From NCBI GenBank assembly GCA_041393395.1, contig JAWKKG010000002.1:124468-188467 (forward strand): DNA of 64,000 nucleotides. The letters run 5' to 3'. A model generated the notes under the pieces. The model searched no databases and was not told the DNA's origin. It saw only the letters and a program-made list of their open reading frames with translations. The translations under genes and the position numbers were made by a program. This document shows, piece by piece, positions 34,577 to 62,646 of the stretch (position 1 is its first letter; each line of letters opens with the position of its first letter). This stretch comes from a bacterium. Its GTDB lineage: Bacteria; ARS69.

Positions 34577-35770
34577 TCTGTGTTTGGCCCGGATCTTTCA
34601 TTGGTCCGGGGCATGTCATCAGATGCCTCCGCGCTCCGGCCGCCGTTCTGTCCCAACTCGAATTGCCCAAATCATTGGGCCAGAACCACTTGGGCCTATC
34701 GGAAGATAGGCTTCTCATCGCCGGATCGACGCGGGTGTAAACACCAGAGGTATCAATGCAAGTTCTGTCGGCGCGCCTTCAGTTTACAGTCGTTCCGTTC
34801 CACCTACTGGATGAAGCGGCCGGACCTACTCGTTCCTGTCTTCCTGCGGCTCGTGGGGTGCTCGGGTTACCGACAGATCGCGAGAGAACTGCGTGTTTCC
34901 CATACCACGATCATGCGAATCGCCGAGAGACTCGGTAGGCATTGCTTGCTCTACCAGTGGCAGCACGTGCGCGATCTGAAGCTGTCCGAGATCGTCGTCA
35001 TCGACGGTTTCGAGAGCTTTGCCCACTCGCAGTTCTATCCCTGCCATCTGAACCTCGCGGTCGGGGCGGAGAGCCACTTCACCTACGCGTTTGCTGAGGC
35101 TGAGCTCCGCCGCAAGGGCACCATGACCGTCTGGCAGAAGCACCGGAGAGCCGAGCTCGAGCGGCAGCACGGTCGCCCGGACCCGAAAGCGATCGAGAAG
35201 AGCGTTGCGGAACTGGTTGCGATGCTGCCTTCGTCGACCGGGGTGCTCTCCGTACGCACCGATGAGCATCCGGCGTACCCCCGGGCGTTTCGTCGCAGCG
35301 GGCGACGGATTCAGCACATGAAGACGTCGTCGGCGGAGGCACGAGTTCCCTCGAACCCCTTGTTCCCCGTCAACCTGGCAGATCTTCTCATCCGGCATTC
35401 GGGCGCGAACCACAAACGAGAGACGATTGCCTTCTCGAAGACCCTCCAAAGTGCCGTGGAGCGATTGGCGATCTTTGTGGTGTGGCGGAATTTCGCGAAG
35501 TCGTTCTCGGAAAAGGTGCAGGACGCCACCCCGGCCATGCGGCTCGGGGTGGCTCGCGCGAAACGGTCTGTGGAGGAGATACTCGGTTCCCGCCTGTTCG
35601 TGTCCAAGACGGTGTTGCCAGGGCGTTGGGGAGGCTACTACCGTCGCGAGGTGGTGACGCTCCCGCGGGGTCTGTCACGACCGCACCGACTGCAGTACGC
35701 CGACTGAGTCTCGCGCCGTTCCGATGCCGACCGGCGGACGAGCTTCGGACACAGTTTCCGAACCACAATC
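34562..35770 (+). mobile_element. Insertion sequence of about 1.2 kb, IS1595-like, with imperfect roughly 24-bp terminal inverted repeats
   Basis: IRL GATTGTGGTTCGTAGTCTGTGTTTGG (34562..); IRR is the reverse complement of GATTGTGGTTCGGAAACTGTGTCC (..35770). It carries a single transposase ORF. The ends abut or overlap the stop codons of def and of the convergent 35770..37932 gene. Confidence 0.6.
34580..35707 (+). CDS. DDE transposase with N-terminal zinc-ribbon and HTH (IS1595-family-like)
   Basis: CPNSNCPNH...CKHQRYQCKFC zinc ribbon; HTH ...GYRQIARELRVSHTTIMRIAERL; DDE-like EIVVIDGFES...DEHPAYP...NLADLLIRHSGANHKRETIAFSKTLQSAVERLAIFVVWRNF. The ATG at 34613 is an alternative start. Confidence 0.75.
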   Translation: MFGPDLSLVRGMSSDASALRPPFCPNSNCPNHWARTTWAYRKIGFSSPDRRGCKHQRYQCKFCRRAFSLQSFRSTYWMKRPDLLVPVFLRLVGCSGYRQIARELRVSHTTIMRIAERLGRHCLLYQWQHVRDLKLSEIVVIDGFESFAHSQFYPCHLNLAVGAESHFTYAFAEAELRRKGTMTVWQKHRRAELERQHGRPDPKAIEKSVAELVAMLPSSTGVLSVRTDEHPAYPRAFRRSGRRIQHMKTSSAEARVPSNPLFPVNLADLLIRHSGANHKRETIAFSKTLQSAVERLAIFVVWRNFAKSFSEKVQDATPAMRLGVARAKRSVEEILGSRLFVSKTVLPGRWGGYYRREVVTLPRGLSRPHRLQYAD

Positions 35771-37932
35771 TACTCGATGTATCCGAGAGCGCGCAGTTCG
35801 TCGCGGATTCTGTCATCCACGCCGGTGGCAATCGCATCCCCCGGCTCCTCATCCTCACGCGCCCCGTACGTCGCGATCCAGCGCACCGGATGCGCCTCAC
35901 GCCAGGCGGGATCGAAGAGGTCCATGAGCGGAACTCCCTCGACGTCGAGCGGGCACGGCGCGCCGAGCGCGTAGAGGACGGTGGAGGCGATGTCGATGGC
36001 GCGGGCGCCGTCGATCGTGGCGGCGGCGCGGAACGGGCCGCCGGCGGCGACGAGGAGACCGTCCATGCGGTGGTCGCCGGAGTGGCCCTCCGGCACGCGG
36101 ATATCGGTCAGGGGGAACTCGACGTCGCCCGTGCCGGTGGCGCCTGCCGGCGGGAGGAGGACCCGGTCGCCGGCGACCGTCTCGTCGAACACCGCGACGA
36201 GACGTGGCCCGAGCTCGTCCTCGTCCAGCGCGAGCGCGCGGAACAGCGGCTCGTTTCCGTTCACGCGGCAGGCGGCGAGACGTTCCTTGGCGAGGGCGAG
36301 TGAGGTCGCGTCGCCGAGGCCGCCGATCCGGAGCACGCGACGCGCGTCGACGGTCGGCGGCCGAGGGTCGAATACGACGCTGCGGGCGGAGTCGGCCGCG
36401 CCGCCCGTGCCGGCCTGGAGCTCCGCGAGCCCGCACAGCTCGAGGAGCCGGTTCGGACGCCACCACTGACTGCGTTCGTTGTTCGTGAGGAATCCGTGGT
36501 CGGAGAGCACGAGCACGCCGGTCTCGGGGTCGAGCAGGTCGAGTGCCTCGCCCAGCAAACCGTCCATGAATCGATAGTATCGATCGACGACGGGCGCGAA
36601 CGCCGCTTCCTCTTCGGGCGTGAGGTCGCCGTACACGAGGTCGGCCACCCGCTCGCCGTCCTTTGCCGCGAGCCGGTACTTCCAGAACAGATGCTGGGTG
36701 TTGTCATTGCCGCGGAAGTACAGCGCCGTGAGATCGGGTTGTCCGTGACGCAACGCGACCCGCGCGGACTCGAGCGTGACGAGGTCGTGCCGGACGACGT
36801 CGTCGAGAATGCCGAGCGATCGGCGCGCCTGGCCCCAGCGATTCGCCCGCCAGTCCGCGAAGCGATCCGGCGGGATGTCGGTGAAGCTCGCGATCTCCCG
36901 GTCGGCGCGGGCGTCGACCCGGGCGCGCGCGGAATCCACGGCCGCGGTCAGCGCTTCGGGCGAGATGCGACGTGGCAGATCGTCGAAGTCGACGCGATCG
37001 GAGATCATGGCACCGGCGATCGCTTCCGCCGGCCACGTGACGTACCAGTTCACGAACGCGGACGTGAACCCGGCCCGCGCACCGAGATTCCAGATTGCCG
37101 GCACGCGTCGCAGGTTCGACGTGACCGGGACGCGATCGCCGTCGCGCCGGACGACGAAGTCCTCGATCCCGTGGACGGATGGCACGGCGCCGGTGGCCAC
37201 GGACGTCCAGACCACGGGGGACTTCGGTGGCCGGATGGAGCGCAGGTCTCCGCGACAGCCGCGTTCGATCAGCGCCTGGAGATTCGGCATCCGCCCGGCC
37301 GCGATCGCCTCGTCCACGAGGCGACCGTCGATGCCATCCAGTCCCAGGATCGCGATCTTCACGCCGGTGGGAACCCGCTCGGGATCCGCGACTTGCGTGC
37401 CGTCCGGTCGCGCGGGAGCGCGACTCGCGAACGCGCTCACGCCCACGACCCAGATCGTCGCGGAGACGACGAAGCCGCTCGCGAGCGCACGGCGCGGTCC
37501 CCGCGGAAGGCGGGTCGTGATTGCGCCCGCGACGACTCCCGCGATCGCCGCCGCCACTCCGCCGATGCCCACGAGTGCCCAACCGACGTCCTGCGCGAGT
37601 GCGCGGTGGCGCCAGACGCTGCCCAGCACGAATCCGTCGAGTGCGACGAGGGCCGCTCCGACGAGCACCGCGCGAACGGCGGAGGGGCCTCGACGGACGA
37701 GCGCCCCGATCACCAGTGCCACTCCGGCGCCGATCAGCGCGTGCCCGCCGACGTACCAGGCCGTCGCCACCGCGGCGGTGTCGAGGCGGATCAGCGTCGC
37801 GTCGGCGAAGCGACCGGAGAGCACGCGGAACACCGCGTTGAGGGCGTCGGCCCACACGTGCCACGTGGCCGAGAGCTCCAGGAAGTGGAGCCACGCGCCG
37901 AGGACGGCCCCGGCGGCGGCGCCCTCCAGCAA
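35770..37932 (-). CDS. Membrane-anchored alkaline-phosphatase-superfamily protein (type I phosphodiesterase/nucleotide pyrophosphatase-like domain), paralog 1
   Basis: N-terminal polytopic TM region of about 170 aa, then ...IAILGLDGIDGRLVDEAIAAGRMPNLQAL...VVWTSVATG...SDHGF.... 720 aa. Paralogous to 44677..46686. Confidence 0.7.
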   Translation of the reverse strand: MLEGAAAGAVLGAWLHFLELSATWHVWADALNAVFRVLSGRFADATLIRLDTAAVATAWYVGGHALIGAGVALVIGALVRRGPSAVRAVLVGAALVALDGFVLGSVWRHRALAQDVGWALVGIGGVAAAIAGVVAGAITTRLPRGPRRALASGFVVSATIWVVGVSAFASRAPARPDGTQVADPERVPTGVKIAILGLDGIDGRLVDEAIAAGRMPNLQALIERGCRGDLRSIRPPKSPVVWTSVATGAVPSVHGIEDFVVRRDGDRVPVTSNLRRVPAIWNLGARAGFTSAFVNWYVTWPAEAIAGAMISDRVDFDDLPRRISPEALTAAVDSARARVDARADREIASFTDIPPDRFADWRANRWGQARRSLGILDDVVRHDLVTLESARVALRHGQPDLTALYFRGNDNTQHLFWKYRLAAKDGERVADLVYGDLTPEEEAAFAPVVDRYYRFMDGLLGEALDLLDPETGVLVLSDHGFLTNNERSQWWRPNRLLELCGLAELQAGTGGAADSARSVVFDPRPPTVDARRVLRIGGLGDATSLALAKERLAACRVNGNEPLFRALALDEDELGPRLVAVFDETVAGDRVLLPPAGATGTGDVEFPLTDIRVPEGHSGDHRMDGLLVAAGGPFRAAATIDGARAIDIASTVLYALGAPCPLDVEGVPLMDLFDPAWREAHPVRWIATYGAREDEEPGDAIATGVDDRIRDELRALGYIE

Positions 37933-38725: not shown

Positions 38726-39781
38726 CTACGCGTGATCGAGCGGGACCTTGTCGGCCTCCGCCAGGAACGCGACGAGCAGGTCGATCGACGCCTGGATATC
38801 CTTGCGGTGGCACATCTCGATCACCGAGTGCACGTACCGCGACGGGATCGACACGCAGCCGGCCGGCACGCCGCCTCCCGCACGCTGGATCGCCGCGGTA
38901 TCCGTGCCGCCCTTCGTGAGGACCTCCATCTGGTACGGGATCTTCTTCTTCTGCGCGATCGCGCGGAGCGCATCGACCACGCGGAAGTCGGAGATCACGC
39001 TCGAGTCCATGACCTTGATCGCCGTGCCGGCTCCGAGCTTCGTCACGTGCTCTTCGGAGCTCGCGCCGGGCACGTCGTTCGCGAGCGTGACGTCGAGCGC
39101 GATGCCGAGATCCGGCCGCAGCGCTTCGGCGGCGACCGTCGCGCCGCGGATGCCGACCTCTTCCTGGGTCGTGGCGACGGCGATGACTTCCACCGCGTGG
39201 CTCTTCAGCGCGCGAACCGCCTCGATCATCACGAACACGCCCACGCGGTCGTCGAGCGACTTCGTGCAGACCGATTCGCCGATGTCCACGAAGTCGCGCT
39301 CGCGCGTCGCCAGGTCGCCGACCGAAACGAGCTTGTCGACCTTCGCCTTGGGCAGGCCGAGATCGATGAAGAAGTGCTCGAGCTTCGGCGGGCGCTGGCG
39401 CTCCTCGTCCGTCATGATGTGGATCGGCTTGCTGCCGATCACGCCCAGCACGTCCTTGCGTCCGTGGACGATGACGCGCTGGGTGGAGAGGGTCTTCGGA
39501 TCGAAACCGCCGAGCGGCGCGAACCGGAGGAATCCGTTCTCGTCCACGTGGGTCACGATCAGCGAGATCTCGTCCATGTGGGCGGAAAGCATGACCCGGC
39601 GGGGCTCGCCCTTCCCGGCGCGGCCGCGGGGCCGGCGGGTCGCGAACACGTTGCCCATCCGGTCGACTTCGATCTCGTCCACCAGCGGGGACAGCTCGCG
39701 GATCACGATTTCACGGATCCGCTCCTCCCGGCCCGGGGGGCCCGGCGTCCGGCACAGCTCACTCAGCAGTTCGACGTTCAT
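38726..39781 (-). CDS. M42-family metallopeptidase (glutamyl aminopeptidase / FrvX-like)
   Basis: Start at ATG 39781. MLSAHMDEI..., ...SKSLDDRVG... and ...EEVGIRGA... are the M42 metal-ligand motifs. 351 aa. Confidence 0.85.
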   Translation of the reverse strand: MNVELLSELCRTPGPPGREERIREIVIRELSPLVDEIEVDRMGNVFATRRPRGRAGKGEPRRVMLSAHMDEISLIVTHVDENGFLRFAPLGGFDPKTLSTQRVIVHGRKDVLGVIGSKPIHIMTDEERQRPPKLEHFFIDLGLPKAKVDKLVSVGDLATRERDFVDIGESVCTKSLDDRVGVFVMIEAVRALKSHAVEVIAVATTQEEVGIRGATVAAEALRPDLGIALDVTLANDVPGASSEEHVTKLGAGTAIKVMDSSVISDFRVVDALRAIAQKKKIPYQMEVLTKGGTDTAAIQRAGGGVPAGCVSIPSRYVHSVIEMCHRKDIQASIDLLVAFLAEADKVPLDHA

Positions 39782-39936: not shown

Positions 39937-42900
39937 ATGCGGGAGCCAGGCACCGAATCCGGGGGAGATCCGCGGGAGATCCGCGCGCTCGCCGACGTCC
40001 TGCACGCTTCGGGAGAGACCTACCGGCGGGACGGCGACTTCGCGCGGGCGGCCGAGTTCTTCCGCAAGAGCCTCGAGATCCTCGGGGCGGCCGGGAGTCC
40101 CGCCCGGCAGGTGGAGGTCCGCCTCGACCTCGCGCGCGTGCTGGTCCGCCTCGGCGACGTCGACGAGGCGAGCCGGCTCGTGGAGGCCGCGCGGGAGGGC
40201 CTCGGTGGGGAGGGTGATCCCCGCGTCCGAGCGGAGTGCCATCAGCTGCTCGGCAACATCGCTCGCGGCCGCGGTCGCCCGGCCGACGCCGAGACGCACT
40301 ACAACCGCGCGCTCGAGCTCTACGGCGAGGTGCGCGACGATCACGGGGTGGCGGCGACCCTCGCGCTGTTCGGCATCCTGCACAACGAACGCGGCAACTA
40401 CGAGGCGGCGGAGGAGCGTTACCGGGCCGCCCTCGCGCTGTTCGAGCGGGTCGGCGACGACGAGCAGATCGCGGCGCTCACGAACAACCTGGGAACGCTC
40501 TTCCTGCGCCGCGGCGACCTCGCGCGCGCCGCCGAGGAACTCGAACGGGCGCGCGGGTTGTTCGAGAAGCTCGGTGATCGACTCGGCGTGGGCAAGTGCC
40601 ACAACAACCTCGCCGGTATCTATCGTGCGCTCGGCCAGGACGGGAAGTCGGCGGAGTCTTTCCGGCAGGGTCTCACGATCTTCGAGCAGATCGGCGACAA
40701 GCGCGGCGCCGCGATCGCGGCGAACAACCTCGCGGTCATCGAGCAGGACTTCGGTCGCTGGGACGAAGCGGAGAAGCTCCACCGCCGCAGCCTGGAGCTG
40801 AAGCGCGAGATGGACGATCGCTCGGGCGAGGCCGTCTCGCTCGGCAACCTCGCCGACGTGGCATTCTTCCGCGGCGAGTGGGACAAGGCGGGGCGACTGT
40901 ACCGTGACGCGCTCGCGCTGCAGCAGGCGGCCGCGAATCGCGCCGGTTGCGCGTGGGTGCACAACCATGCCGCGCGCCTGTCCCTCGCGCGCGGTCAGCA
41001 GGATCGCGCCGGGCGGGAAGCGGCGAACGCGCGCCAGATCGGCAGGGAAGTCTCCTCGCGCGAGATCCAGGCCGAGGCGATCGTCACGGAGATCCGCCTC
41101 GCGCTCGCGGCGGGCGATCTCGGGGGCGCGCGACGTCTCCTGAACGAGGCCGAGGATCTCGCCCGCGGCATGCGCAGTCGCGAGGTGGAGGCGCTCGTGC
41201 GCCGGTCGCGCGGCGAGGTGCTCGCGGCGGAAGGTTCCACCGACGAAGCGGACGAGGTCTTCGACGAGGTCGCGCGTGCGTTCCGGCGTTTGCGCCGCCC
41301 GTTCGATCTCGCGTCGGTGGAGCTCGCACGCGGCCTCGCGTGGGCGTTCGCGAAGCGCGGCGACCGGGCGGTGGAGCCGTTCACCGAGGCGGAGCGGATT
41401 CTCGACGAGCTCGGCGCCTCCGTGCACGTGCTCTCGCCGCTGCGCACCGCCGTCGAGTTTCTCGTCGGCAATCGACCGGGCGACGGACAGGAGCTCGCCG
41501 AGGCGGGTCTCCGTCTCGCGCGACGTCTCGCGGACGACGAATCGGTGGAGGCCTTCGGGCGGCTCGCGAGCGAGGTCGCCCGCGAGCACGAGGACGAGCG
41601 GGCGCCGGGCCTGCGCCTCGCCGACGTCGGTCGATTCGCGGAATCGCTCCTGCGCCTGCCGGGGGGCGAGGACCCCGTCGCGTTCACGCTCGCTCGTCTC
41701 CTCGACGAGCTGCGGGGCGATCGCGGCGTGCTCCTCGTGCGCGACACGGACGCGGAACGCTTCGAGGTGACGGCCTCGGACGGCTTCGAAGACCCCGGGC
41801 GCACGGATGCCGTGCGCGCCGCGGAGCGCGCCGTGGAAACGGGCGAGGTCTGGCGCGACTTCCGCGGCGGAGAGCGCGACAAGCCGCGGTCCCGCCTCGT
41901 ATTGCCGTTCGGTCTCGGGGCGCCGGTCGTGGGCGCGGTGCATCTGGAGACATCCGTGGGAGCGCGCGGTTTCGGCGAGGACGACGAGCGCTATGCGTTC
42001 GCGGTCGCCACCGTGCTCGTGCTGCACCTGGCGGGCGCGGCGCCGGAGCCGACCGCCGTCGCGCGGGTGCGCGTGGCGCCGCGCGAGAAGCCGGCCGCGT
42101 TCGCGGAGATCGTGGGCGACTCGGGTCGCATGAGCGAGGTCTGCGATACCGCGCGCAAGGTCGCCGCGAGCAACACCACGGTCCTGATCCTCGGCGAGAG
42201 CGGGACCGGCAAGGAGCTTCTCGCGCGCGGGATTCACCGATCTTCGCCGCGACGCGAAGGTCCGTTCGTCGCGGTGAACTGTCCGTCGATTCCGCGCGAC
42301 CTGCTCGAGAGCGAGCTGTTCGGCTACGAGAAGGGGGCGTTCACCGGAGCGGACGAGACGAAGGAAGGACGCCTCGAGCTCGCGAACGGCGGCACGCTGT
42401 TCCTCGACGAGCTCGGCGATCTCCCGTTCTCGGCCCAGGCGAAGCTGCTGCGCGTGCTGCAGGAGCGCACGTTCGAGCGGCTCGGCGGGCTCGCCACCCG
42501 GCGCGTCGACGTCCGGATCCTCGCCGCGACGTCGGTCGATCTCGCGCGCGCCGTCGCGGAGCGCCGGTTCCGTGAGGACCTGTACTACCGACTGAACGTC
42601 GTGCCGATCGTGATGCCGCCGTTGCGCGAACGCCCCGAGGACGTGCCGGCCCTGGTGGACCACTTCCTCTCGCGCTATCAGGTGGAGAGCCGTCCGGTGC
42701 AGTGGGTCAGCCCGGAGGCGCTGCGGCTGCTCACGGCGTATCCGTGGCCCGGAAACGTCCGCGAGCTGGAGAATGCGATCCAGTACGCGCTGAGCCTCAT
42801 GGACGGGGACACGCTGCGGCCCGCCGACCTGCCGCGGGTCGTGCGCTCGCACCAGGCGAGCGGGGAGGCGGCGGCCGGCAGTCTGCAGTCCGAGGTCGAC

Positions 42901-43092
42901 CGCCTGGAGCGGGACCTCATCCAGCAGGCGCTGGAGGCGACCGATTGGAATCGGAGCGAGGCTGCCCGGCGCCTCGGGACGAACGAGTCCAAGATCCGTC
43001 AGCGCATGAAGAAGCACGGGATCGCGCCTCCCCGGCGCGGTCGGCGAATCGCTCCGCGGGGCCGCGATTTCGGCAAATCCGACGAAGTCTGA
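39937..43092 (+). CDS. Sigma-54-dependent transcriptional activator with N-terminal TPR repeats and a GAF-like sensor, AAA+ sigma-54 interaction domain, and C-terminal Fis-type HTH
   Basis: GESGTGKE Walker A, GAFTGA sigma-54 contact motif, ...DLYYRLNV..., C-terminal [29 protein letters not shown], many TPR-like LGNIA/YNRAL repeats. ATG 39937 is preferred; the TTG at 39901 is possible. Confidence 0.85.
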
Positions 43093-43269
43093 AGCTCCTT
43101 GATTTCAATCGGTTGCGCCTCACTTTCCACGGATTCGGCGATTTCCACGAGCGCCTTCCGTCGCGGGGCCGACGAAGCTCCGATTCGGGCGACATTCCTG
43201 CGTTCATAAGTTGTTTAAAATCAATCGCATCGCGGCTTGATTCGTCGTTTCCGACGAGCCGCGAAGAAT

Positions 43270-43285
43270 TGGCACCAACGTTGCT
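43270..43285 (+). promoter_or_regulatory. Sigma-54 (-24/-12) promoter TGGCAC-N5-TTGCT
   Basis: TGGCACcaacgTTGCT has exact GG-N10-GC spacing. It lies 178 bp downstream of the sigma-54 activator gene and upstream of a small ORF and the LTD/C-tag protein gene. Confidence 0.6.
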
Positions 43286-43404
43286 CTTTGGGGTCGCATC
43301 GCCGGGCGAACTTCCCGGCGGTGGAGAGGACGACCCCCGTGGATTCTCAGAAGACCGACACGAACCGGCCGAGGGGCAGGGGCCGAGGCAAGCTGGGGCG
43401 GCGA

Positions 43405-43623
43405 ATGAACCTCGCAATGTCCCTGGCTCTGGCCGGTTTCGTGGTCGGCTTCTGGGGTCTCGTCCAGGGGTTCGCGGCGCCGGGCGACGTTCCGGCGCCG
43501 ACTCGGGGACCCGAGCCTCTCCATCGCGGGGAAGCCCTGGCGGGCGACCTGGCGCTGGAGCGCCCGGCCCCGCCCGTTCCCGCGCGGATCGCGGGCGATC
43601 TCGAGATCCGGCTCCCGCGCTAG
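43405..43623 (+). CDS. Possible small hydrophobic secreted/membrane peptide
   Basis: 72 aa, MNLAMSLALAGFVVGFWGLVQGFAAPG..., sitting between the sigma-54 promoter and the LTD gene. Confidence 0.3.
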   Translation: MNLAMSLALAGFVVGFWGLVQGFAAPGDVPAPTRGPEPLHRGEALAGDLALERPAPPVPARIAGDLEIRLPR

Positions 43624-43691
43624 ACGAGCGATCGCCCGCTCGCGTGCGCTACAATCGGTGGACTCTTCCACCGCTGACCGAGGACGACCCG

Positions 43692-44672
43692 ATGCGATTC
43701 CCTGCTTCTCGTGCCGTGCTCCTGCTCGCACTCCTCGTCGCGGCGCCGGTCCGCGCCGACGTCCTGCTCAACGAGTTCGGGCGCACGGGCGCGGGCGCGA
43801 GCACCGTCGAGCTCTACAACGCGCTCCCGGACACGGTGGATCTGACGGGCTGGTTCCTGCGCAATCAGGACGGCCTCGAGGTCGCGCTGTCCGGCAGCAT
43901 CGCACCCGGCGAGCACCAGACCACCTCCACCGGGAACCTCGTGGTGGAGGGCGGCCAGATCGAGCTGTACGACGGGACGCTGCTGCAGCGGGACGAGGTC
44001 TCCTTCGGCGATCAGGGTGGGGCGCCGCTGCCGCCGCCGGGAGCTTTCTCGTGCGCGCGCTCTCCCGACGGCACGGACACCGACGACGACGCGGCCGACT
44101 GGAACCTCGACTCCACGCCGACCTTCGGCGCCACGAACGATCATCTGCCCGCGAACCTCGGCTTCTCGAACGTCGCCATCAACGAGGTCGGGCGCAGCGC
44201 GTTCGCGTTCGGCCGTCTCGCATGCCCGACGCCCCGCATCGAGCTCCACAACAAGGGCGTGACGCCGGTGAACCTGAACGGCTGGTTCCTCACCGATGGC
44301 CGCCAGGTCGTACCCCTGAGCGGTCCGCTGCCGGCCAACGGCTTCGTCGTCGTGACGGACTTCCCGCCGCTGTTCTGCTTCGAGGAGACGCATGTGCTCT
44401 ACCTGTTCGGGCCGGCCGGGCGCCGCTTCGATCAGGTCGGAGTGCTCGGCTCGTCGCTGCCGCCGGGCAGTCTCGAGGACAGCTGGCAGCGCGTGCCGGA
44501 TGGATCCGGCCCGTACGACGGCTACGACTACGCGACCAGCGGTGGTTCCGTCACGTGGGTGATCCGCACGTCCACGTTCGGGCAGCCGAACGGGAGCGGT
44601 CCGATCACGGATGCACCGGAGCTCGACACGGAAACCTGGGGACGTCTGAAGGCCGGCTACCGGGTCCGCTGA
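43692..44672 (+). CDS. Secreted protein with two lamin-tail-domain (LTD) repeats and the ...ETWGRLKAGYR C-terminal tag
   Basis: GAGGA RBS. Signal peptide MRFPASRAVLLLALLVAAPVRA. LTD pattern twice: VLLNEFGRTG...VELYNALPDTVDLTGWFLRNQDG and VAINEVGRSAF...IELHNKGVTPVNLNGWFLTDGRQV. C-terminus TETWGRLKAGYRVR. The upstream part of the 42702 ORF is rejected. Confidence 0.75.
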   Translation: MRFPASRAVLLLALLVAAPVRADVLLNEFGRTGAGASTVELYNALPDTVDLTGWFLRNQDGLEVALSGSIAPGEHQTTSTGNLVVEGGQIELYDGTLLQRDEVSFGDQGGAPLPPPGAFSCARSPDGTDTDDDAADWNLDSTPTFGATNDHLPANLGFSNVAINEVGRSAFAFGRLACPTPRIELHNKGVTPVNLNGWFLTDGRQVVPLSGPLPANGFVVVTDFPPLFCFEETHVLYLFGPAGRRFDQVGVLGSSLPPGSLEDSWQRVPDGSGPYDGYDYATSGGSVTWVIRTSTFGQPNGSGPITDAPELDTETWGRLKAGYRVR

Positions 44673-44676
44673 TCGA

Positions 44677-46686
44677 TCAGCGGAGGGTCTCGCGCGGGGC
44701 GCCCGGCGGGTCGTAGGTCGCGACCATGCCGGGCAGCCGGTTCGCGGTGCTCGCATCGAGCGCCTCGGCCAGGACATCGCCGGGGAGATCCGCCGCGAGA
44801 TCGTGTCCGGTGAGCACGAGCAGCGTGGGGACGACGTCGAGAAGCGATCCGCTCTCGATCCGCGATCCCGGCGCGACTCCCTTGCCCTGCAGCACGATCG
44901 CTCCGGTGTCGCTCATCTGCGCGCTCTCGAGGACCTCGGATGCGCGCACGAGCTCGTCGACCGCGGCGCGTCCGCCCTGGAAGAGCACGAGGTCGTCGAA
45001 GTGGGTCGCCACCTCGGGGCGTACGGTGACGACGACGTTGCCCCACTCGTCCACGCGCGCCGAGAACGCGCGCGCGTCGCCGCGCGCGAGCCGCGCCGTC
45101 TCGAACAGACGCCGCACGCGTTCGCGGTTTCCTTCCTGACCCGGGTTCATGCGCACGTACGTGCGCGCGCCGAGATTGGTCGCTTCCACCGCGCCCTTCA
45201 GGCGCATCTCGCGCAGGAGCGGTTCCACCTTGAGGGAGAGCGTGCGCCGCGAAGCGTCCGAGACCGCCTCCGCGCCGTGATCCGAGAGGATGATCACGAG
45301 GTCGTTCGGCTCCGTCTCGGAGAGAATGCGACCCAGGAAATCGTCGCAGATGCGGTACGCCTCCTGCACGCTGTCTCCGTAGCGCGCGACGTCGTCCGGC
45401 GAGATGCCCGGGAACTCCGTGGGGTCGTAGTACTTCCAGAAGTACGACTGCGCCACGTGCACGATGTTCGTGTAGTACGCGGCGAAGTCCACCGGGCGCT
45501 GGCGGCGGAGCTCCGCGAAGTAGTCGCAATTCAGCTTCGCGCGGAGCTTGCGGCGCGTGAACAGCCGCGCCGTGTCGAGCGAGCGACCGTGGACGACGTC
45601 GGAACCGATCTCCTGGCCGGCCGCGATCAACGTCGAGAGGCGCACACCCCACCGGATCCCCAGGAACGCGAAGCGACAGTACCGGCCCCAGGTCCGGTCG
45701 CGTCTCGTCTTCTCGCTCATCGCGAGCTCGCGAATGAAGCTCGCCTCGACGGGCCACGTCTCGGTGCCCGGATCCGACACGGCGGGCACGACGAACCCGT
45801 CCGTCCGTTGCGGGGGCGCGGTCACCGGCCAGCCGAACAGCCCGACGGACCATCCGCGATCTCCGAGGATGTCCCAGATGCGCGAGACCTGGACGTCCTC
45901 GGCGGTCTCGTTGAAGCCGTGGATCCCGTGCTCGTCGGGCATCTTGCCGCTCGCGATCGACGTCCACACCGCCGTCGCCATCGAGGGACGGAGCGACCGC
46001 ACGTCGCCCCACGCGCCTTCGCGGCGCAGCCGAACGAGGTTCGGCATTTCTCCGCGGTCGGCGAGATCCTCCACGACCTTCCAGGAGAGGCCGGGCATCG
46101 CGACCATCAACACGCGGGAACCGGGGGCCTTGCCGCGTCCCCACTCGGTCGCGCCGAGCACGACCGCGAGGACCGGAAGCACGAGGAGTGCGGGCCACAG
46201 CCACCAGCGCGAGCGCTTCGCCATCGCCCAGACCGCGAACGCGCCGATGAGCGCGAGGCCGGTCGCGAGCACGATCGCGCCGCCGTACCGCGCGAACTCC
46301 GAGGCGGAGAACGTGCCGAGGTAGGCGGGGAGCAGGGCCAGGCCGATGGGGAACGTCACGAATGCCGTCGCGGTGCCGGCGAGCCATTCCAGCGCGCGCC
46401 GCGGATCCTCACTGGAGCCGATGTGCGCGAGGCGGTCCAGTCCGCGGCCCACGGTCAGACCGAGCAGTGCCCCGAGGGCGACGGGCAGCGCGAGGAACAC
46501 GCCGACTCCGTATCCCAGGTGATCGACGAAGCGGGGGTTCAGGAGAAGTGTCGCCGCGGCGAGCAACGAGGCGAAGAAGAGGGAGGCCGCGATTCCGGAG
46601 CGGGTGAGCTTCCAGAGCAAGGCGCATTTCTCCTGGAGACGGAATCGAGCCCAACGAGCGTAGCGAACCGGCCGTCGCCGCGTCAA
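44677..46686 (-). CDS. Membrane-anchored alkaline-phosphatase-superfamily protein, paralog 2
   Basis: N-terminal TM region; ...VLMVAMPGLSWKVVEDLADRGEMPNLVRL...AVWTSIASG...SDHGAE.... An alternative TTG start at 46620 has AGGAGA upstream. Confidence 0.7.
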   Translation of the reverse strand: MTRRRPVRYARWARFRLQEKCALLWKLTRSGIAASLFFASLLAAATLLLNPRFVDHLGYGVGVFLALPVALGALLGLTVGRGLDRLAHIGSSEDPRRALEWLAGTATAFVTFPIGLALLPAYLGTFSASEFARYGGAIVLATGLALIGAFAVWAMAKRSRWWLWPALLVLPVLAVVLGATEWGRGKAPGSRVLMVAMPGLSWKVVEDLADRGEMPNLVRLRREGAWGDVRSLRPSMATAVWTSIASGKMPDEHGIHGFNETAEDVQVSRIWDILGDRGWSVGLFGWPVTAPPQRTDGFVVPAVSDPGTETWPVEASFIRELAMSEKTRRDRTWGRYCRFAFLGIRWGVRLSTLIAAGQEIGSDVVHGRSLDTARLFTRRKLRAKLNCDYFAELRRQRPVDFAAYYTNIVHVAQSYFWKYYDPTEFPGISPDDVARYGDSVQEAYRICDDFLGRILSETEPNDLVIILSDHGAEAVSDASRRTLSLKVEPLLREMRLKGAVEATNLGARTYVRMNPGQEGNRERVRRLFETARLARGDARAFSARVDEWGNVVVTVRPEVATHFDDLVLFQGGRAAVDELVRASEVLESAQMSDTGAIVLQGKGVAPGSRIESGSLLDVVPTLLVLTGHDLAADLPGDVLAEALDASTANRLPGMVATYDPPGAPRETLR

Positions 46687-46754: not shown

Positions 46755-48476
46755 CTAGTGGACGCGGACCGCCGGCTCCCAGGCGAGGGAGCGGATTCCG
46801 CCGAGCGATTCCGCCGTGAGCGCCCGTCGCACGCCGTGAGCGACCTCGTTCGCCGAGAGGCGCCGGATCTCACCCGAGCGGAGCAGGTCCAGGGCCGAGC
46901 GCTCGCGCGGATAGTGGACGAGGTCCACCTTCGTGTCCGGATCCAGGTCCGCGAGCTCCCGGGCGACGTCCAGCGCCTGCCAGAACGTCCCGAGATCGTC
47001 CACGAGCCCGCGCTCGAGCGCCTGGCCGCCGGTCCAGACCCGGCCGCCGGCGACGGCCTCGATCTCCTCCGGCGTCCGGCCGCGCGCGTCCGCGATGTCC
47101 GCGATCCAGCGGTCGTAGGTCGCGAGGTGGTCGCGCGCCACGAGGTCCCACTGCTCGGGCGTGAAGTCCGTGAGCTCCGAGAACAGGAGCGCGTTCGGCG
47201 CGTACGCGATCGTGTCGTGCGTGATGCCGAGCTTCTCGTACAGACCGCGGACGTTGAGCTTGCCCGTGAGCGAACCGATCGAGCCCGTGATGCCGTTGCG
47301 CGGGCAGACGATCCGGTTCGCGCGGAAGCTCATGGTGTATCCGGCGGATGCGGCCACGTCGGCCACGGAGACCACGACCGGCTTCTCGTCGCGCAGGCGC
47401 TGCACCGCGTGCGCAATCAGGTCCCCGCCGACGGTCGCGCCGCCGCCGGTGTCCCAGCGCAGGATGACGGCCTTCACGGAGTCGTCTTCGCGGGCGTCTT
47501 CCAGGTCGTCGACGATCCGGTCCGGGCCGAGGGTGAGCCCCACGACCGTGTCGAAGCGATCGTCGCCGTTCGCCGCCACGAATCCCTGCGCGTGCACGAC
47601 GGCGATCTTGTCGCGGCCGGCGAGCTTCACCGCGCGACGTTCCACGTGCGCGTACGCGGGCGAGGACACGGACGCCAGGTGCTTGTCCGTGCCCCGGCAG
47701 TGATCGGCGAGCTCGTCCCACCAGAGGAGTCCGTCCACCACGCCCGCGGCGAGCGCATCGTCGGCGCGGAGGATTCCGCGCGCGCGAAGGTCGCCGACGT
47801 CGTCCGCGTCGAGGCCGCGGTTCTTGTCCAGCACGCGCACGTAGGACGAATCGAGCTCGTCGAACAGCCAGGTCACGTTCTCGATCGCCTCGTCCGAGGA
47901 CTGCTTGCGCGTGAACAGCTCCACCGCGCTCTTGTAGGCGCCGATCGCGTGGAAGTTCGGCGTCACGTCGAGCAGATCGAACGTTCCCTTGAGGTGCTCG
48001 ATCTGCGCCGCGCGACCGAACGCGTACACCTCGCCGTTCGGCGCGAGGAAAACGCTGTCGCACTCGCTCGCGAGGTACAGCGCCGTCTCTCCGAACGACT
48101 CGGCGTGCGCATACACGGGCTTGCCGGCATCGCGCACGCGGCGGATGCCGGCGCGGATCTCGTCGAGCTTGCCGAGGCCGGCCGCGAATCCGTCGAGACG
48201 GAAGATCACGCCCGTGATGCGATCGTCCACCGCGGCCTTCTCGAGGTTCTCCGTGACCTCCATCAGGCAGGTGCGCGGATCGTCGAACAGCTCGCTGAGG
48301 GTGGGAGGCGTGTAGTACTCGAGCAGGCCGCCGTTCAGGCGAATCGTGAGCCAGGAGTCGTCGCGCGGACCGGTGTCTCCGAGCACCGCCACCGCGACGA
48401 GCGCCAGGGTCGGAACGATCACACAGAACGCGATTGCCAGGACAACCGCCACGAACGTGCGGAAGAACGCGAGCAT
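46755..48476 (-). CDS. sppA: Signal peptide peptidase SppA (protease IV, 67K type; tandem S49 domains)
   Basis: N-terminal TM anchor, two ClpP/crotonase-like S49 repeats, and the catalytic Ser region ...AASAGY...; 573 aa. Confidence 0.9.
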   Translation of the reverse strand: MLAFFRTFVAVVLAIAFCVIVPTLALVAVAVLGDTGPRDDSWLTIRLNGGLLEYYTPPTLSELFDDPRTCLMEVTENLEKAAVDDRITGVIFRLDGFAAGLGKLDEIRAGIRRVRDAGKPVYAHAESFGETALYLASECDSVFLAPNGEVYAFGRAAQIEHLKGTFDLLDVTPNFHAIGAYKSAVELFTRKQSSDEAIENVTWLFDELDSSYVRVLDKNRGLDADDVGDLRARGILRADDALAAGVVDGLLWWDELADHCRGTDKHLASVSSPAYAHVERRAVKLAGRDKIAVVHAQGFVAANGDDRFDTVVGLTLGPDRIVDDLEDAREDDSVKAVILRWDTGGGATVGGDLIAHAVQRLRDEKPVVVSVADVAASAGYTMSFRANRIVCPRNGITGSIGSLTGKLNVRGLYEKLGITHDTIAYAPNALLFSELTDFTPEQWDLVARDHLATYDRWIADIADARGRTPEEIEAVAGGRVWTGGQALERGLVDDLGTFWQALDVARELADLDPDTKVDLVHYPRERSALDLLRSGEIRRLSANEVAHGVRRALTAESLGGIRSLAWEPAVRVH

Positions 48477-53882: not shown

Positions 53883-56800
53883 CGCAGGTTCTTGCAAGTC
53901 CTGGCACGAATCGTGCCCCCCCCCATTTCTGGAAACAGGTAGCGCGCTCGGAATCGCGGCACTCGCTCTGATACCCTGGTCCACAGCCCGGGCGGACGTT
54001 ACCGACGCCCGGCTCTGGGAGCCCGCCGTGCAGATGACGTTTGCCGAGTTCGACGTGCAGGTGCTGGCCAAGCAGCTCGCCCGCCGATCGGGTGGGGGGT
54101 TCCATCAGATCGTGGAAGCGTGGTCCGACAGCCTCGGTCGCAACAACGGCTTCGGCTGGTACCTCGAGGTCGGACCGTCCCTCGATTGGGCTTCGGCCTG
54201 GCAGGATCGCGAGCTGTTCACTTTCGTTCCCGACACGACTGTCGGAAACAAGGTCCCGTACGGGCATTCCGACTTTCGCATGCTCGTCAGCAACGACGAC
54301 GACGTACACGCGTTCTACGAGGCGAAGTTCTATCCGCCCGATTCGATCCGAGCAATGGTCGCTTACAAACGTCGGGGTGGGGTGTCGTGGGACTCCGCGT
54401 CCGACCCGGTGTTTCTCGCTCCCGGCTGCGTGAGTGACTCGCCGCGCCCCTACTACGATAGCGAAACAGACATCATGCACCTGATGTTCACGGCGGCGGC
54501 TACCACGGGATGCTACCCCGCTCCTCCGTCCGGCACGGACCTGCAGGTCTATACGAGAAAGGCAGTGTCCGCCGCAGACTCCGCTTGGGCGCCGCTGACG
54601 TACATGTACCCGAGCATTGGCCTCGGTCCGATCGGGGGCGGTGTGTTCGCGGAAGCCGACACGGTGCACTTCTTCGGGAGTCGAACAGAGAACCAAAGCG
54701 GGTGGAAAGTCGTCACGGTGATCCACCGGAGCGGACTCCGCCCGCCCCCGGCGAGTACTGGACGTTCGCCCACGTCGATACGCTCGACTCTTTTCTGGTG
54801 CCTGGTGATGGCGATCCCCGATCGGAGCCCGAGGACCAGCCCACACCCTTCGAAGGGGCCAGCGGCGACTCCCTCTACGTGGCCTGGGCTCGACCGATGG
54901 GTACGACCGGCGCCGACGAGGTGATGTTCGCCGTCTACGATCTTCGGGACACTTTATGGACCCCGGACAACTGCCCCACGGGTAACTGCGGTTCGCTTCC
55001 CCCGTTCGGTCTCCAGCTCACGACGACGGATGATTCCGCGGAGGACTCGTGGGATCCAAAGGTGGTCGTAGACGCGGCCGGCGCCGTTCACGTCTTCTAT
55101 CGCGTCGGCGATCCCTCGACCCTGCAGCACTTGTTCAACTCTGGCGACCCGACCAACCTCGCGGACTGGAGCGAGCCGACGATCCTGTCGTTCGAGGAGG
55201 AGCACACGGCGAGACTGCCGACGGTGGTCGCCGACGCTGACACCCTGTGGGTCGCGTACTCCGCTCAGTCTCTGACCGGATGCACGGCGAATTGCCGGCA
55301 GGGCTTCTTCAAGCTCGGCACCCGTCACGTGAACTGGGGCGGCACGGTCAACGTCCGCTCGGACTTCGTCGTGGCGTCGGCCGGCACGCTCTCGATCGCG
55401 CCGGGCACCACGGTGATCGCGGGCGCGGCTCCCGTCGGAAACCTGGGCAATCGCGCGGACGACGTCGAGATCGTGGTGGGCGGAACCCTGCTCGCGGAAG
55501 GAACGTCGACCGAGGCGGTGACCTTCACCGGAGATGTCGCGACCCCGGGATCCTGGGGAGGCATCTTGTTCCGCGACACCGCCGACGACTCGCCGAGTTC
55601 GATCTCGTACGCCGACTTCGAGTATCCGGAGTTCGCGGTGCAGGTCGACTCGCTGGCCGGGACGCTGTTTCGGCCCACGTTTGCGGGAGTCGCCCAGGCC
55701 GACGTCTACGTTGATCGGAGTACACGGTTGCCGCTGGGATCGGCCTGGTGGTTCGAATCCCCCGTGAGCATCCGCGTTGCTTCTGAGGACGCCGCCCAGC
55801 CGGGTGGTGACATCTCCATCACCATCGACGGCGACCTGTACGCGCAGCCCGCGGGTGGCCGGGTGCAGGTTCTGTCCGCGTCCCCGACCGCAAGCGGGGA
55901 GGACTGGGAGGGGATGGTCGTCCGGTCTGCGGGCACGATCATCGCCTCGAACCTCGAGATCGGGCACTGCCGCAATCCCCTGACTCTGCTTGCCGCGGAC
56001 CACGCGCAGCTCTTCGACAGTGAACTTCACACCTTCGCGGGAGACGGTGTGTTCGACTGGGGCTCAGATGCGCGCATCGAGCGATGCCTCATTTGGAACG
56101 GCGGGCTCGATGTGCAGGCGAGCGCTGGATCCGCGATTCGCAGCATCAGCTCGGCGACTTGGGCTCTTGCCGACACCATCGACGGTCGGTTTTCGCACGG
56201 AATCTGGAGCTCGTATTCATACGGATTCTGCACCGCGGCCCCGATTCCGCTCGGGAAGACCATCCAGATCGACGGGAATGTGATCCGAGGCCCCGGCGTC
56301 GAACACCCTTCGGAGACGGGACGCGGACTGTACGTCGAGTGGATCTGTCACGGAATCGACGCGCTGGTGTCGGACAACTGTGTCTCGCAGTGGCCGCAGC
56401 AGGGCATCTCGCTCTCCAATGCGGCCAACACCCAGGTCGCGTGCAACTGGGTGGACAGTACGGAAGTCGGACTGAAACATTTCCGGGGCGATCATGTTCC
56501 CTCGGGTGACGCGGACGTCCAGTTCCGACGGAACGTTGTCAGTGCCTGGGAGACTCGCGGCATCAACGTGACCTCTCCGGAGGGGTTCGAAATGGCGGAT
56601 CTCTCCACAGCGGCGCGGAACGAGGTGCGCCAGGATGGCCAGGACGACACCTTCGTTCGGTTTCGCCCCACGAGCAGCACGCAAGGTGCCGAGTTCGATG
56701 TGAGCAACCAGCTCTGGGTTGACCCCACCGGCGCCGTTCTCACGGATCCTGCGGACGTGCTCACCGACTGCGACTTCAACCTGCTGTCGCCCATCGTGAT

Positions 56801-57206
56801 CACCTCGCTGCTGACGTCCCAGGAGCGCTGCGCGAGCATAGCGACGTGCCCAGGAAGCTCGCAGGCGGTGGCCCGGCGAGGCGCAGACCGCGCACCGGAA
56901 CCAGGAGCAGAACGTGGCGACCCGCCACGCCGTTTCGAGAGCTTCGTGGAAACGGTGGCCGGGCGAGCGCGAGTCGTGCTGGCCGGTCCGGCGGACACGG
57001 AGCCGCCCGTGCAGGGGCGTGTCTACGACGTCGCCGGGCGTCTCGTTCAGGAGGTCCATGGCACCTTGGTGTCTCCCGGTCGGTACGTGCTCGAATGGAA
57101 CGGCTCGACTGGGGCAGGCCATCAAGCGGCAGACGGTGTGTACTTCTTGCGCGTCGAAGCCCCGGGCCATCATCGAACGCACAAGATCGTCCGGATCCGG
57201 AGGTAG
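53880..57206 (+). CDS. Large secreted protein: BNR/sialidase-like N-terminal region, right-handed beta-helix region, and a FlgD-Ig/T9SS-type C-terminal domain. As sequenced, the reading frame is broken twice at homopolymeric C tracts (C9 at 53916..53924 and C5 at 54745..54749), so it may be a pseudogene, a sequencing artefact or phase-variable.
   Basis: Frame 0 gives ATG 53880 MRRFLQVLARIVPPP..., which stops at 53942. Frame 1 (53925..54749) continues a signal-peptide-like ...FLETGSALGIAALALIPWSTARA|DVTD... and plausible protein up to ...WKVVTVIHRSG. Frame 0 again (54750..57206) runs GEYWTFAHVD... to the C-terminus ...GRVYDVAGRLVQEVHGTLVSPGRYVLEWNGS...GVYFLRVEA.... Removing one C at the first tract and adding one at the second restores a single ORF of about 1105 aa. 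Confidence 0.55.
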
Positions 57207-61291: not shown

Positions 61292-61747
61292 CTAGCGGTA
61301 GATCGACTTCACCCGACCCCAGCTCTCGCTCTCCACGGAGATCGCCGGGAACTCCGGGGCGCCCATCTGGATCCACTCGCGGATCACGTCGATGGTCGTC
61401 TGCGGCAGCGGGCCGCCGATGAGCGGCATCTGGTTGCCCACGATCCACGGGCAGTTCTCGAGCTTGCAGATGATGTAGCTGTTGTCCGGATCGAACGGCG
61501 CCACGCGAACCGCCGTGGGCACCTCCACGCTCGGCACGTCCACGAGGAAGCTGAACGCCTGGCCCTCGCGCAGGTCGAGGTTCGCCTGCATCGCGCCGCC
61601 GTGGCAGGCGGCGAGCGCGCAGCCCGGCGTGAAGACGTTCGCCTGGATGTCCTGCAGGGTGGGCTCGAACGGACCGCCCGCGGCCCGGGCGCTGCCGAAG
61701 CCGAGGAGGGTCAGAACGGAAAGAGTCGCAATCGTCGCAACGCGCAT
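61292..61747 (-). CDS. Small secreted Cys-motif protein carrying the same ...SESWGRVKSIYR C-terminal tag
   Basis: Start at ATG 61747. Signal peptide MRVATIATLSVLTLLGFGSARA. Contains CALAACHG (Cx4CH) and CKLENC. 151 aa. The 216-aa upstream extension is rejected. Confidence 0.6.
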   Translation of the reverse strand: MRVATIATLSVLTLLGFGSARAAGGPFEPTLQDIQANVFTPGCALAACHGGAMQANLDLREGQAFSFLVDVPSVEVPTAVRVAPFDPDNSYIICKLENCPWIVGNQMPLIGGPLPQTTIDVIREWIQMGAPEFPAISVESESWGRVKSIYR

Positions 61748-61970
61748 GGGCCGCTCCAATCGACGGGTCCAAGGGGTCTCCCGGACGCGCCGGAGCGCGC
61801 CGGGTGGGGGATTCCGGTTGCACCCCGTCGTGTGGAACGGGGGGATGTCGCGATGATAGTGGATTCGGAGTCTCCGAGGGAACCCCGGCGCTGCGCGAGG
61901 CGCTCGCCGCCGCCGCTCACGAGATCCGGATCCTTCTGTCACGAATTCCCCGGGGGCCCGGGAGCCCGCG

Positions 61971-61999
61971 TTGACGGGCCTCTCGGGCCGGGGTAGCGT
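61971..61999 (+). promoter_or_regulatory. Candidate sigma-70-type promoter for ubiX-ubiD
   Basis: TTGACG, a 17-bp spacer, then TAGCGT. Confidence 0.35.
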
Positions 62000-62091
62000 C
62001 CCGGGTCCTGCCCCCGTCGTCCCGTTCTTCTCGAGGCAAGGGCTCCGGATCGGCCGCCGCGGCCCGCCCGAGCCGCGGCCCCCGGAGTGCC

Positions 62092-62646
62092 ATGCGAACT
62101 GTCGTCGTGATCACGGGAGCCTCCGGCGCCGTCTTCGGGATCGAGCTGCTGAAGCGCCTGCCCGGCGAGAAGGTCCTCATCCTCACGAAGTGGGGGAAGG
62201 TCGTGATCCGCGAGGAGACCGGCCTTTCCGTCTCCGAGGTCGAGGCGCTGGCGGACTCCGTCTTCTCGGACGAGGATCTGGCCGCACCGATCTCCTCCGG
62301 CTCGAATCCGTTCGACGCGGTCGCGGTGCTGCCGATGAGCGCGAGCTTCCTCGCGAAGGTCGCCGCCGGGCTCGGCGACACGCTCGGCACGCGCGTCTGC
62401 CACATCGCGCTGAAGGAGCGCCGACGTCTCGTGCTCGCCCTGCGCGAGACGCCCGTCACCGGCATCACGCTCGACAACGCGGCGCGCGTGTCGCGCGAGG
62501 GCGCGATCGTGATGCCGGTGTCGCCGTTCTTTTACCTGAAGCCGGACTCGATCGATCGACTCGTGGGCGACTACGTCGATCGCATGGTGCAGACGCTGAC
62601 CGGTGCGCCGATGCCGGACGGCTGGAAGCGCGAGGATCTCGCGTGA
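62092..62646 (+). CDS. ubiX: Flavin prenyltransferase UbiX (Pad1 family)
   Basis: VVITGASGAVFGIELLKRL, a Rossmann-like flavoprotein of 184 aa. Confidence 0.9.
   Translation: MRTVVVITGASGAVFGIELLKRLPGEKVLILTKWGKVVIREETGLSVSEVEALADSVFSDEDLAAPISSGSNPFDAVAVLPMSASFLAKVAAGLGDTLGTRVCHIALKERRRLVLALRETPVTGITLDNAARVSREGAIVMPVSPFFYLKPDSIDRLVGDYVDRMVQTLTGAPMPDGWKREDLA

Follow-up and report, generated by a model that had tools for sequence, protein, structure and literature searches.

Among the classical activators of sigma-54-dependent transcription, NorR, PspF, PrpR and RtcR are all encoded beside their targets, and for two described activators the arrangement of binding sites is a useful reference for the locus considered here. 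NifA recognizes the upstream activator sequence TGT-N10-ACA, its 3-N10-3 dyads preceding a -24/-12 promoter from which an AT-rich tract separates them, and NorR uses three dyad sites for the assembly of its ring. The GAF domain of NorR is thought to keep the AAA+ domain inactive until the signal arrives (PMC2941729). A different kind of precedent is provided by the PEP-CTERM/PrsR system, where the genes of tag-bearing secreted proteins are preceded by a long non-coding region that holds both an activator-site motif and a -24/-12 sigma-54 motif, and where a TPR protein belongs to the regulatory set; such genes can be sigma-54-controlled as a class (Haft et al. 2006, PMC1569441). Here, we describe positions 39937 to 44672 of a 64,000-nucleotide stretch of the bacterial contig JAWKKG010000002.1 (the whole stretch being referred to as the window; GC content 69.5%), which in our judgement quite probably carries a locally wired sigma-54 circuit made up of an activator gene, three dyads, a promoter and the genes for a small protein and a secreted lamin-tail-domain (LTD) protein. 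Circuits of this type are already known, and what is added is a corrected model of the small gene, a candidate enhancer and, for the LTD gene, a probable second promoter.

A predicted sigma-54 promoter and its candidate enhancer

The comparative set consisted of the window and six orthologous loci (L001, L002, L003, L004, which is identical with L005, L016 and L017), chosen from loci encoding homologues of the LTD protein or of the small protein, with a genome scan using the LTD alignment returning five loci. All seven share the gene order M42 peptidase (minus strand), activator (plus), small open reading frame (ORF; plus), LTD gene (plus), phosphodiesterase (minus) and S49 peptidase (minus), and the LTD proteins of the orthologous loci are 50-58% identical to that of the window where a figure was obtained.

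The -24/-12 element, TGGCAC-CAACG-TTGCT on the plus strand at 43270..43285 (TGGCAC 43270-43275, spacer CAACG 43276-43280, TTGCT 43281-43285), was recovered by pattern match, by a weighted scan and in the seven-locus alignment. Its sequence and GG-N10-GC geometry, and the 178 bp that separate it from the activator stop at 43092, are as given in the original prediction. The window holds a single exact match to TGGCAC-N5-TTGC, the mean number expected from dinucleotide shuffles being 0.02 (2 of 100 shuffles held a match), and the weighted GG-N10-GC scan found its sole 7/7 site at the same place. In the alignment of the seven loci, TGG (43270-43272) and TTGC (43281-43284) never change and no indel falls between them, while the 5-nt spacer and the sequence around the element differ from locus to locus; the -24 part takes the forms TGGCAC, TGGCAT, TGGCCC and TGGTAC, and the element is the top-scoring GG-N10-GC site in each orthologous locus. 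Invariant -24/-12 bases amid a drifting spacer and flanks would be expected if the sigma-54 holoenzyme reads the element as a promoter, and not if the match were due to chance, so that a functional sigma-54 promoter is predicted, with a transcript start near 43296.

It is highly improbable that the motif is instead a chance match, or a piece of coding sequence with no promoter function. An ORF of 128 aa that begins at TTG 43237 and runs to 43623 does span the motif, and the GC content at third codon positions (GC3) in that frame climbs from about 43270; against this stand the low chance expectation, the fact that the seven orthologues keep the -24/-12 bases rather than a frame across them, and the alignment of the orthologue start codons with 43339, after a conserved ribosome-binding site.

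The gene upstream of the promoter (39937..43092, plus strand) encodes a sigma-54 enhancer-binding protein of 1051 aa from ATG 39937, identified by Pfam domains, motifs and orthologue identity. A TPR array (TPR_12, TPR_MalT; about 39985-41412) is followed by GAF_3 (about 41680-42030; 35.5 bits against a cutoff of 27), Sigma54_activat (PF00158; 42109-42609; E 2.5e-70), AAA_lid_14 (42625-42873) and HTH_8 (42898-43017; E 4e-11), in agreement with the TPR-GAF-AAA+ activator first proposed. Walker A (GESGTGKE), Walker B (FLDELGD) and GAFTGA (42334-42351, read in the translation) are intact and ESELFG is also present, so that an AAA+ domain bearing these motifs and an N-terminal TPR and GAF_3 module together mark the protein as a bacterial enhancer-binding protein, to which the HTH_8 domain and three conserved upstream dyads add a DNA-binding domain and its candidate sites. 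Over its full length it is 67% identical to the L001 orthologue and 33% to a distant, collinear protein from L009. All 25 NCBIfam models listed for named activators score under their cutoffs, the best being NifA (365 bits against 529), with NorR at 313 against 476. For the sensor region (aa 1-720) we found only five close homologues, and the few unrelated proteins in metagenomes that join TPR, with or without GAF, to a sigma-54 activator are uncharacterised. A search of the literature found nothing on TPR-containing activators. As to autoregulation, the divergent region upstream of the activator gene holds neither a dyad nor a -24/-12 element.

The candidate enhancer consists of three dyads of the form TCG-N10-CGA. 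Site A (TCGGCAAATCCGACGA, 43070..43085) lies inside the last activator codons, with its centre 193.5 bp upstream of the -24 GG; site B (TCGGCGATTTCCACGA, 43135..43150) is centred 128.5 bp upstream of the GG, or about -150 from the predicted start; and site C (TCGTCGTTTCCGACGA, 43242..43257), which reads TCGTCG-TTTC-CGACGA, a perfect 6-N4-6 palindrome, is centred 21.5 bp upstream of the GG, or about -46. The outer TCG and CGA triplets are invariant at all three dyads in the seven-locus alignment, site A not being found in L004. Their geometry is equally regular: six of the seven loci have the dyads about 21, 127 and 192 bp ahead of the -24 GG. The distance from the centre of site C to the GG is 20.5-21.5 bp in all seven loci, that from site B is 126.5-128.5 bp in six, and the A-to-B centre distance is 65 bp in each of the six loci with site A detected. 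In L003, site B is centred 116.5 bp from the GG; there, B and C stand 9-11 bp less far apart, or roughly a helical turn, and A and B are both about 10 bp closer. Site B, 120-135 bp upstream of the promoter and at fixed spacing, falls within the interval of 80 to 150 bp in which the original prediction had suggested that upstream activator sequences be sought.

Site C matches the dyad at 12 of 12 positions in four of the seven loci and is the sole 12/12 site among the AT-rich-spacer matches across the window. A scan that allowed three mismatches returned 344 matches and was uninformative because the motif resembles GC-rich codons, and the specificity of the dyad lies in its conservation and its AT-rich spacer. 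Between the dyads the sequence is poorly conserved except for an AT-rich tract between B and C (TAAGTTGTTTAAAATCAATCG, 43200..43235), whose GC content is as low as 0.47 against 70% for the window and which is itself only partly conserved; it may be a bending site, the L001 tract matching the IHF consensus exactly by eye and the window tract not doing so.

The activator's recognition helix is nearly identical in the six orthologues where it is readable and different in distant relatives, which also lack the dyads. Because dyads and helix are conserved together and are missing together, we infer that the dyads are putative sites of the adjacent activator. This joint conservation, with the invariant -24/-12 bases and the fixed distances, supports the earlier proposal that the adjacent activator serves the promoter. 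Could the promoter be genuine and yet be served by another activator, with the TPR-GAF protein acting elsewhere and the dyads bound by some other regulator? The dyads are indeed candidate sites, and distant clades pair the same activator family with an LTD gene that has no sigma-54 promoter, so that the activator's targets there must lie elsewhere. We nevertheless regard this as improbable, since dyads and recognition helix are conserved together and absent together, one dyad lies within the activator gene itself, and classical activators such as those named above adjoin their targets.

The overlap of site A with the activator's reading frame has a counterpart in the protein. The last codons (43062-43092, RDFGKSDEV and stop) overlap the dyad, and the orthologues show no less conservation in the DNA there (TTTCGGCA..TCCG.CGA) than in the peptide (DFGKSDE, GFGNSAE, DFGTSDE); the constraint on the activator tail may come from the binding site and not from the protein.

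The small, probably exported protein and the lamin-tail protein

The predicted transcript would begin with a conserved GC hairpin or palindrome (CATCGCCGGG / CCCGGCGGTG, 43297..43323, plus strand), whose GCCGG...CCGGC core is invariant; no compensatory changes or covariation occur among the orthologues, so that an RNA stem and a DNA operator are indistinguishable, and an Rfam search gave only sub-threshold microRNA noise. It is followed by a ribosome-binding site (GGAGAGGA, 43323..43330), 6 of whose 8 bases are invariant in the seven-orthologue alignment, placed 8 nt before GTG 43339. This GTG opens a gene for a small, probably exported protein of 94 aa (43339..43623, plus strand; GC3 0.80-0.84), and the start codons of the orthologues all align with it, just after the ribosome-binding site. 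The original prediction had placed here a 72-aa hydrophobic peptide starting at ATG 43405. That call is too short, as the orthologues and the ribosome-binding site indicate, and the ATG is the wrong start because it would drop the invariant RG-LGRR motif; nor does the label fit, as the protein carries a twin-arginine-like (RR-type) signal.

At its basic N-terminus the small protein carries a conserved twin-arginine-like motif, RG-LGRR-x-LA; a hydrophobic stretch comes next, and then a 45-aa core that is also conserved (PLHR..ALAG.L.LERPAxPVPxRVxG). It has no Pfam or NCBIfam match, and its family comprises 16 members, all hypothetical and all from this lineage. In the family alignment, GRRxxLA is kept in 13 of 14 members; the hydrophobic stretch is 15-24 residues long, which makes a membrane anchor as possible as a twin-arginine translocation (Tat) signal. 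The same truncation is seen in the public record for one family member, P0037 (KC591_13760, locus L010), which comes from a metagenome-assembled genome (MAG) with a 94% identical LTD protein and is annotated by NCBI in the 72-aa form; this gene model is probably too short, as it loses the RG-LGRR N-terminus that the family alignment shows to be conserved.

Downstream lies the gene for the secreted double-LTD protein (326 aa; 43692..44672, plus strand), for which the original description held up. It has a signal peptide (aa 1-22; MRFPASRAVLLLALLVAAPVRA/D, read by eye), LTD1 (about aa 24-140), LTD2 (about aa 161-293), a Pro/Gly/Thr linker and a C-terminal tag. Pfam LTD (PF00932) matches in two stretches (48.2 bits against a cutoff of 34.3), and the AlphaFold2 model consists of two beta-sandwiches (pLDDT 86, pTM 0.82) that Foldseek matches to the lamin immunoglobulin (Ig)-fold domains 2lll, 1ifr and 3gef with probability 1.0. 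A profile score above the gathering threshold and an Ig-like beta-sandwich thus place the domains among the lamin tail domains. The protein is identical to the hypothetical protein R3B81_00715 of an unclassified MAG. As LTDs lack a catalytic site, its role at the cell surface is most likely to bind or to anchor.

Whether the LTD gene depends on the sigma-54 promoter is a separate matter. A scan for consensus elements found neither a sigma-70-type promoter nor a terminator from the activator stop to the end of the LTD gene, and in all orthologues the small ORF is followed on its own strand, after a gap of 46-91 bp, by the LTD gene, so that read-through is likely. In that gap, a -10-like hexamer, TACAAT (43650..43655, plus strand), lies 36 nt before the LTD start codon; TA[CG]AAT is invariant in the seven orthologues at 23-54 nt ahead of the LTD start codon, overlapping the stop or last codons of the small ORF in some and lying past the stop in others, and it is therefore conserved as DNA, independently of the small-ORF frame and stop. 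No conserved -35 was seen in the orthologues. The hexamer suggests a candidate -10 of a sigma-70-type promoter, and the LTD gene probably has basal expression atop the read-through from the sigma-54 promoter. The claim that the sigma-54 promoter drives both genes is thus supported as far as the promoter goes, with the qualification that the LTD gene may also have a promoter of its own. Taken further, the sigma-54 promoter would control essentially the small exported protein alone and the LTD protein would be made from its own promoter, with the -10 at 43650. The invariance of the hexamer, which occurs only three times in the 64-kb window on both strands together, and the distant relatives that carry the LTD gene without a sigma-54 promoter speak for this arrangement, but the short same-strand gap with no terminator, the missing -35 and the retention of the activator-LTD pairing across clades, which points to a link with the LTD gene rather than with the lineage-restricted small ORF, make it rather unlikely in our estimate, if less so than the two alternatives above. 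The sole other plus-strand TA[CG]AAT of the window, at 2985-2990, spans the stop of a tagged beta-helix gene ending at 2987 and lies about 400 bp upstream of a C25 peptidase gene; it resembles the hexamer at 43650 in overlapping a stop.

The LTD protein ends in ...ETWGRLKAGYRVR, of which TWGRLKAGYRVR (44634-44669, read in the translation) is the tag. Five ORFs of the window end in [ST]WGR[LIV]K..[YF]R, 0-7 residues from the stop, with gene ends at 2987 (plus), 44672 (plus), 58513 (plus), 60575 (plus) and 61292 (minus; gene 61292-62110). Besides the LTD protein, the set comprises three beta-helix proteins and a protein of 272 aa that lacks any Pfam domain (61292-62110), so that the sharing of the tag with the beta-helix family, as first proposed, is borne out. 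The tag, which is about 10 hydrophilic residues long with no hydrophobic segment, follows a Pro/Gly/Ser-rich or Cys-containing linker, and it is kept in all 12 LTD homologues read that have a short tail. It shows none of the PEP motif, transmembrane helix and basic cluster of PEP-CTERM/exosortase substrates, and of the two tagged proteins scanned, neither the LTD protein nor the 272-aa ORF matched an NCBIfam sorting-signal model. The tag may represent a sorting or anchoring signal of a kind not yet described. The proposed link between the tag family and the activator is limited to this one member, the other tagged genes within the window, which the original prediction had proposed scanning, having no -24/-12 site.

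Two longer LTD paralogues of about 405 aa, P0019 (L006 6001-7218) and P0015, carry other C-terminal modules at the position of the tag, P0019 an FlgD_ig domain and P0015 a hydrophobic tail (PTLSEWGLILLSLLVV...) that is IPTL-CTERM-like by eye. This swapping of C-terminal modules suggests that the tag, too, serves in export or anchoring. The L006 paralogue with the FlgD_ig tail does not stand beside an activator; downstream of it come another LTD gene and an ORF with a weak likeness to EpsH (exosortase). Within the window, a C25 (gingipain-like) peptidase of about 1720 aa (3382-8553, plus strand) has FG-GAP repeats and an FlgD_ig / Por_Secre_tail C-terminal domain, and a beta-helix protein (54510-57206, plus strand) has an FlgD_ig tail, so that C-terminal domains of the type IX secretion system (T9SS) type and the SWGR tag coexist in one genome. 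A 5/7 sigma-54-like site at 3452 lies within the signal-peptide codons of the C25 peptidase gene and is probably due to chance.

The proposed circuit, its reach and its setting

In the circuit that we propose, the cytoplasmic activator would sense a signal with the long TPR array, with the GAF domain or with the two together, and its dimers would bind by the C-terminal Fis-type helix-turn-helix (HTH) to the three TCG-N10-CGA dyads at about -216, -150 and -46, the first of them inside the end of the activator's own gene. The dyads would nucleate an AAA+ ring which, with ATP and its GAFTGA loops, would open the sigma-54 holoenzyme at TGGCAC-N5-TTGCT. The transcript, from near 43296 and with the short GC hairpin at its head, would encode the 94-aa exported protein and would probably extend over the double-LTD protein with its SWGR-type tag, because no terminator follows the small gene; the -10-like hexamer would probably give the LTD gene a second, activator-independent level of expression. 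Site C, at about -46, may act as a third nucleation site or as a negative 'governor' site.

Several observations weigh against this circuit. No ORF with an RpoN box was found in the window or in the 17 fetched loci, to which the search was confined. For an enhancer, a position of -46 would be exceptionally near to the promoter, and the site there could instead act in repression or as a governor. Given the conserved TA[CG]AAT, expression of the LTD gene need not rely on the sigma-54 promoter. Finally, the promoter arrangement is specific to one clade, and the older link between the genes may be other than that of activator and target.

This last point comes from four more distant loci in which the activator-LTD pair recurs among other flanking genes, with 35-40% LTD identity. 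The two genes are separated by 53 bp in L007 and by 43 bp in L009, whose activator is the collinear 33% identical protein mentioned above; they overlap by 4 bp in the P0029 locus, and in L015 a peptidase gene is inserted between them. None of the four has the small ORF. In the three whose DNA was examined (L007, L009 and L015), no acceptable GG-N10-GC or -24/-12 element precedes the LTD gene, L015 carrying TCGCAC-N5-TTGCA with the GG broken. It is because these pairs abut or overlap, or have no GG-N10-GC upstream of the LTD gene, that the promoter arrangement appears clade-specific, and the LTD gene is there probably co-transcribed with the activator gene. Pairing without the promoter also means that the functional tie is older than the promoter arrangement of the window. 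A bolder reading is that the activator and the LTD gene form an old signalling module of the Eisenbacteria lineage, in which a TPR-GAF sigma-54 activator governs a surface protein exported by an undescribed [ST]WGRxKxx[YF]R sorting signal; we hold this only tentatively, and think it doubtful.

The relatives of the window are labelled Candidatus Eisenbacteria/Eiseniibacteriota or, loosely, Gemmatimonadota, and a literature search found no work that pairs Eisenbacteria with sigma-54 or that concerns regulation in the phylum. For an uncultured phylum, the proposed circuit would be one of the earliest regulatory circuits concrete enough to be tested. It supplies a candidate enhancer motif, TCG-N10-CGA, with its geometry, for an uncharacterised class of TPR-GAF activators, amends the gene model of a small, probably exported orphan protein, and would link a bacterial lamin-tail protein to a signal-dependent regulator. 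Such a link would suggest a way into the function of bacterial LTDs, by helping to find out when the protein is produced.

The module is flanked by two paralogous genes for membrane-anchored type I phosphodiesterases / nucleotide pyrophosphatases (35770-37932 and 44677-46686, both minus strand) and by genes for M42 and S49 (SppA-like) peptidases (38726-39778 and 46755-48476, both minus strand), a neighbourhood that is kept in the close orthologues and not in the distant ones. A role of these flanking genes in scavenging extracellular nucleotides, DNA or phosphate is conceivable. In two of the metagenome contigs the activator genes are frame-shifted: in L003 (4500-5492 and 2228-5062), the AAA+ part runs on in another frame, and in L002 (4113-5291) the activator is called as a 392-aa fragment. 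As the regulatory region and the HTH are intact in both, the shifts are probably assembly errors, pseudogenisation being the alternative.

Comparison with described systems

The secreted component has its nearest described counterpart in bacterial LTD proteins such as ExeM, an extracellular nuclease. For bacterial LTDs in general, roles in membrane or surface targeting or in substrate binding have been proposed (PMC6085458). The window protein resembles ExeM in being secreted with a lamin-tail Ig-like fold and matches the NCBIfam ExeM model marginally (E 0.0039), but it has no nuclease or other catalytic domain, consisting just of two LTDs and the tag.

With regard to the coupling of sigma-54 control to a sorting tag, the old signalling module of the bolder reading, if true, would be the second example after PEP-CTERM/PrsR, with a new tag and a new sensor architecture. 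The differences are considerable. The tag of the window protein lacks a PEP motif, a transmembrane helix and a basic tail. The activator does not belong to the response regulators, and the TPR region is fused to it; only one of the five tagged genes of the window has the promoter, and no exosortase was seen at the window locus.

In the activator and its sites, the resemblance to NorR extends to the order GAF-AAA+-HTH, the position of the activator gene beside its target and the presence of three dyads. Unlike NorR, the window activator has an added TPR array, scores under the NorR cutoff and is encoded in tandem with its target rather than divergently. NifA, the best NCBIfam match, likewise has a GAF domain preceding the AAA+ domain, and its HTH is also of the Fis type; the 3-N10-3 dyads of the window, with an AT-rich tract upstream of the -24/-12 element, follow the geometry familiar from NifA. 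The window activator nevertheless falls under the NifA cutoff and carries an extra N-terminal TPR array of about 560 aa, and the dyad is TCG-N10-CGA, present at three sites of which one is at -46 and one in coding sequence, ahead of a non-nif target. In overall anatomy and logic, the locus is a classical circuit of an activator beside its target, closest to NifA and also resembling NorR.

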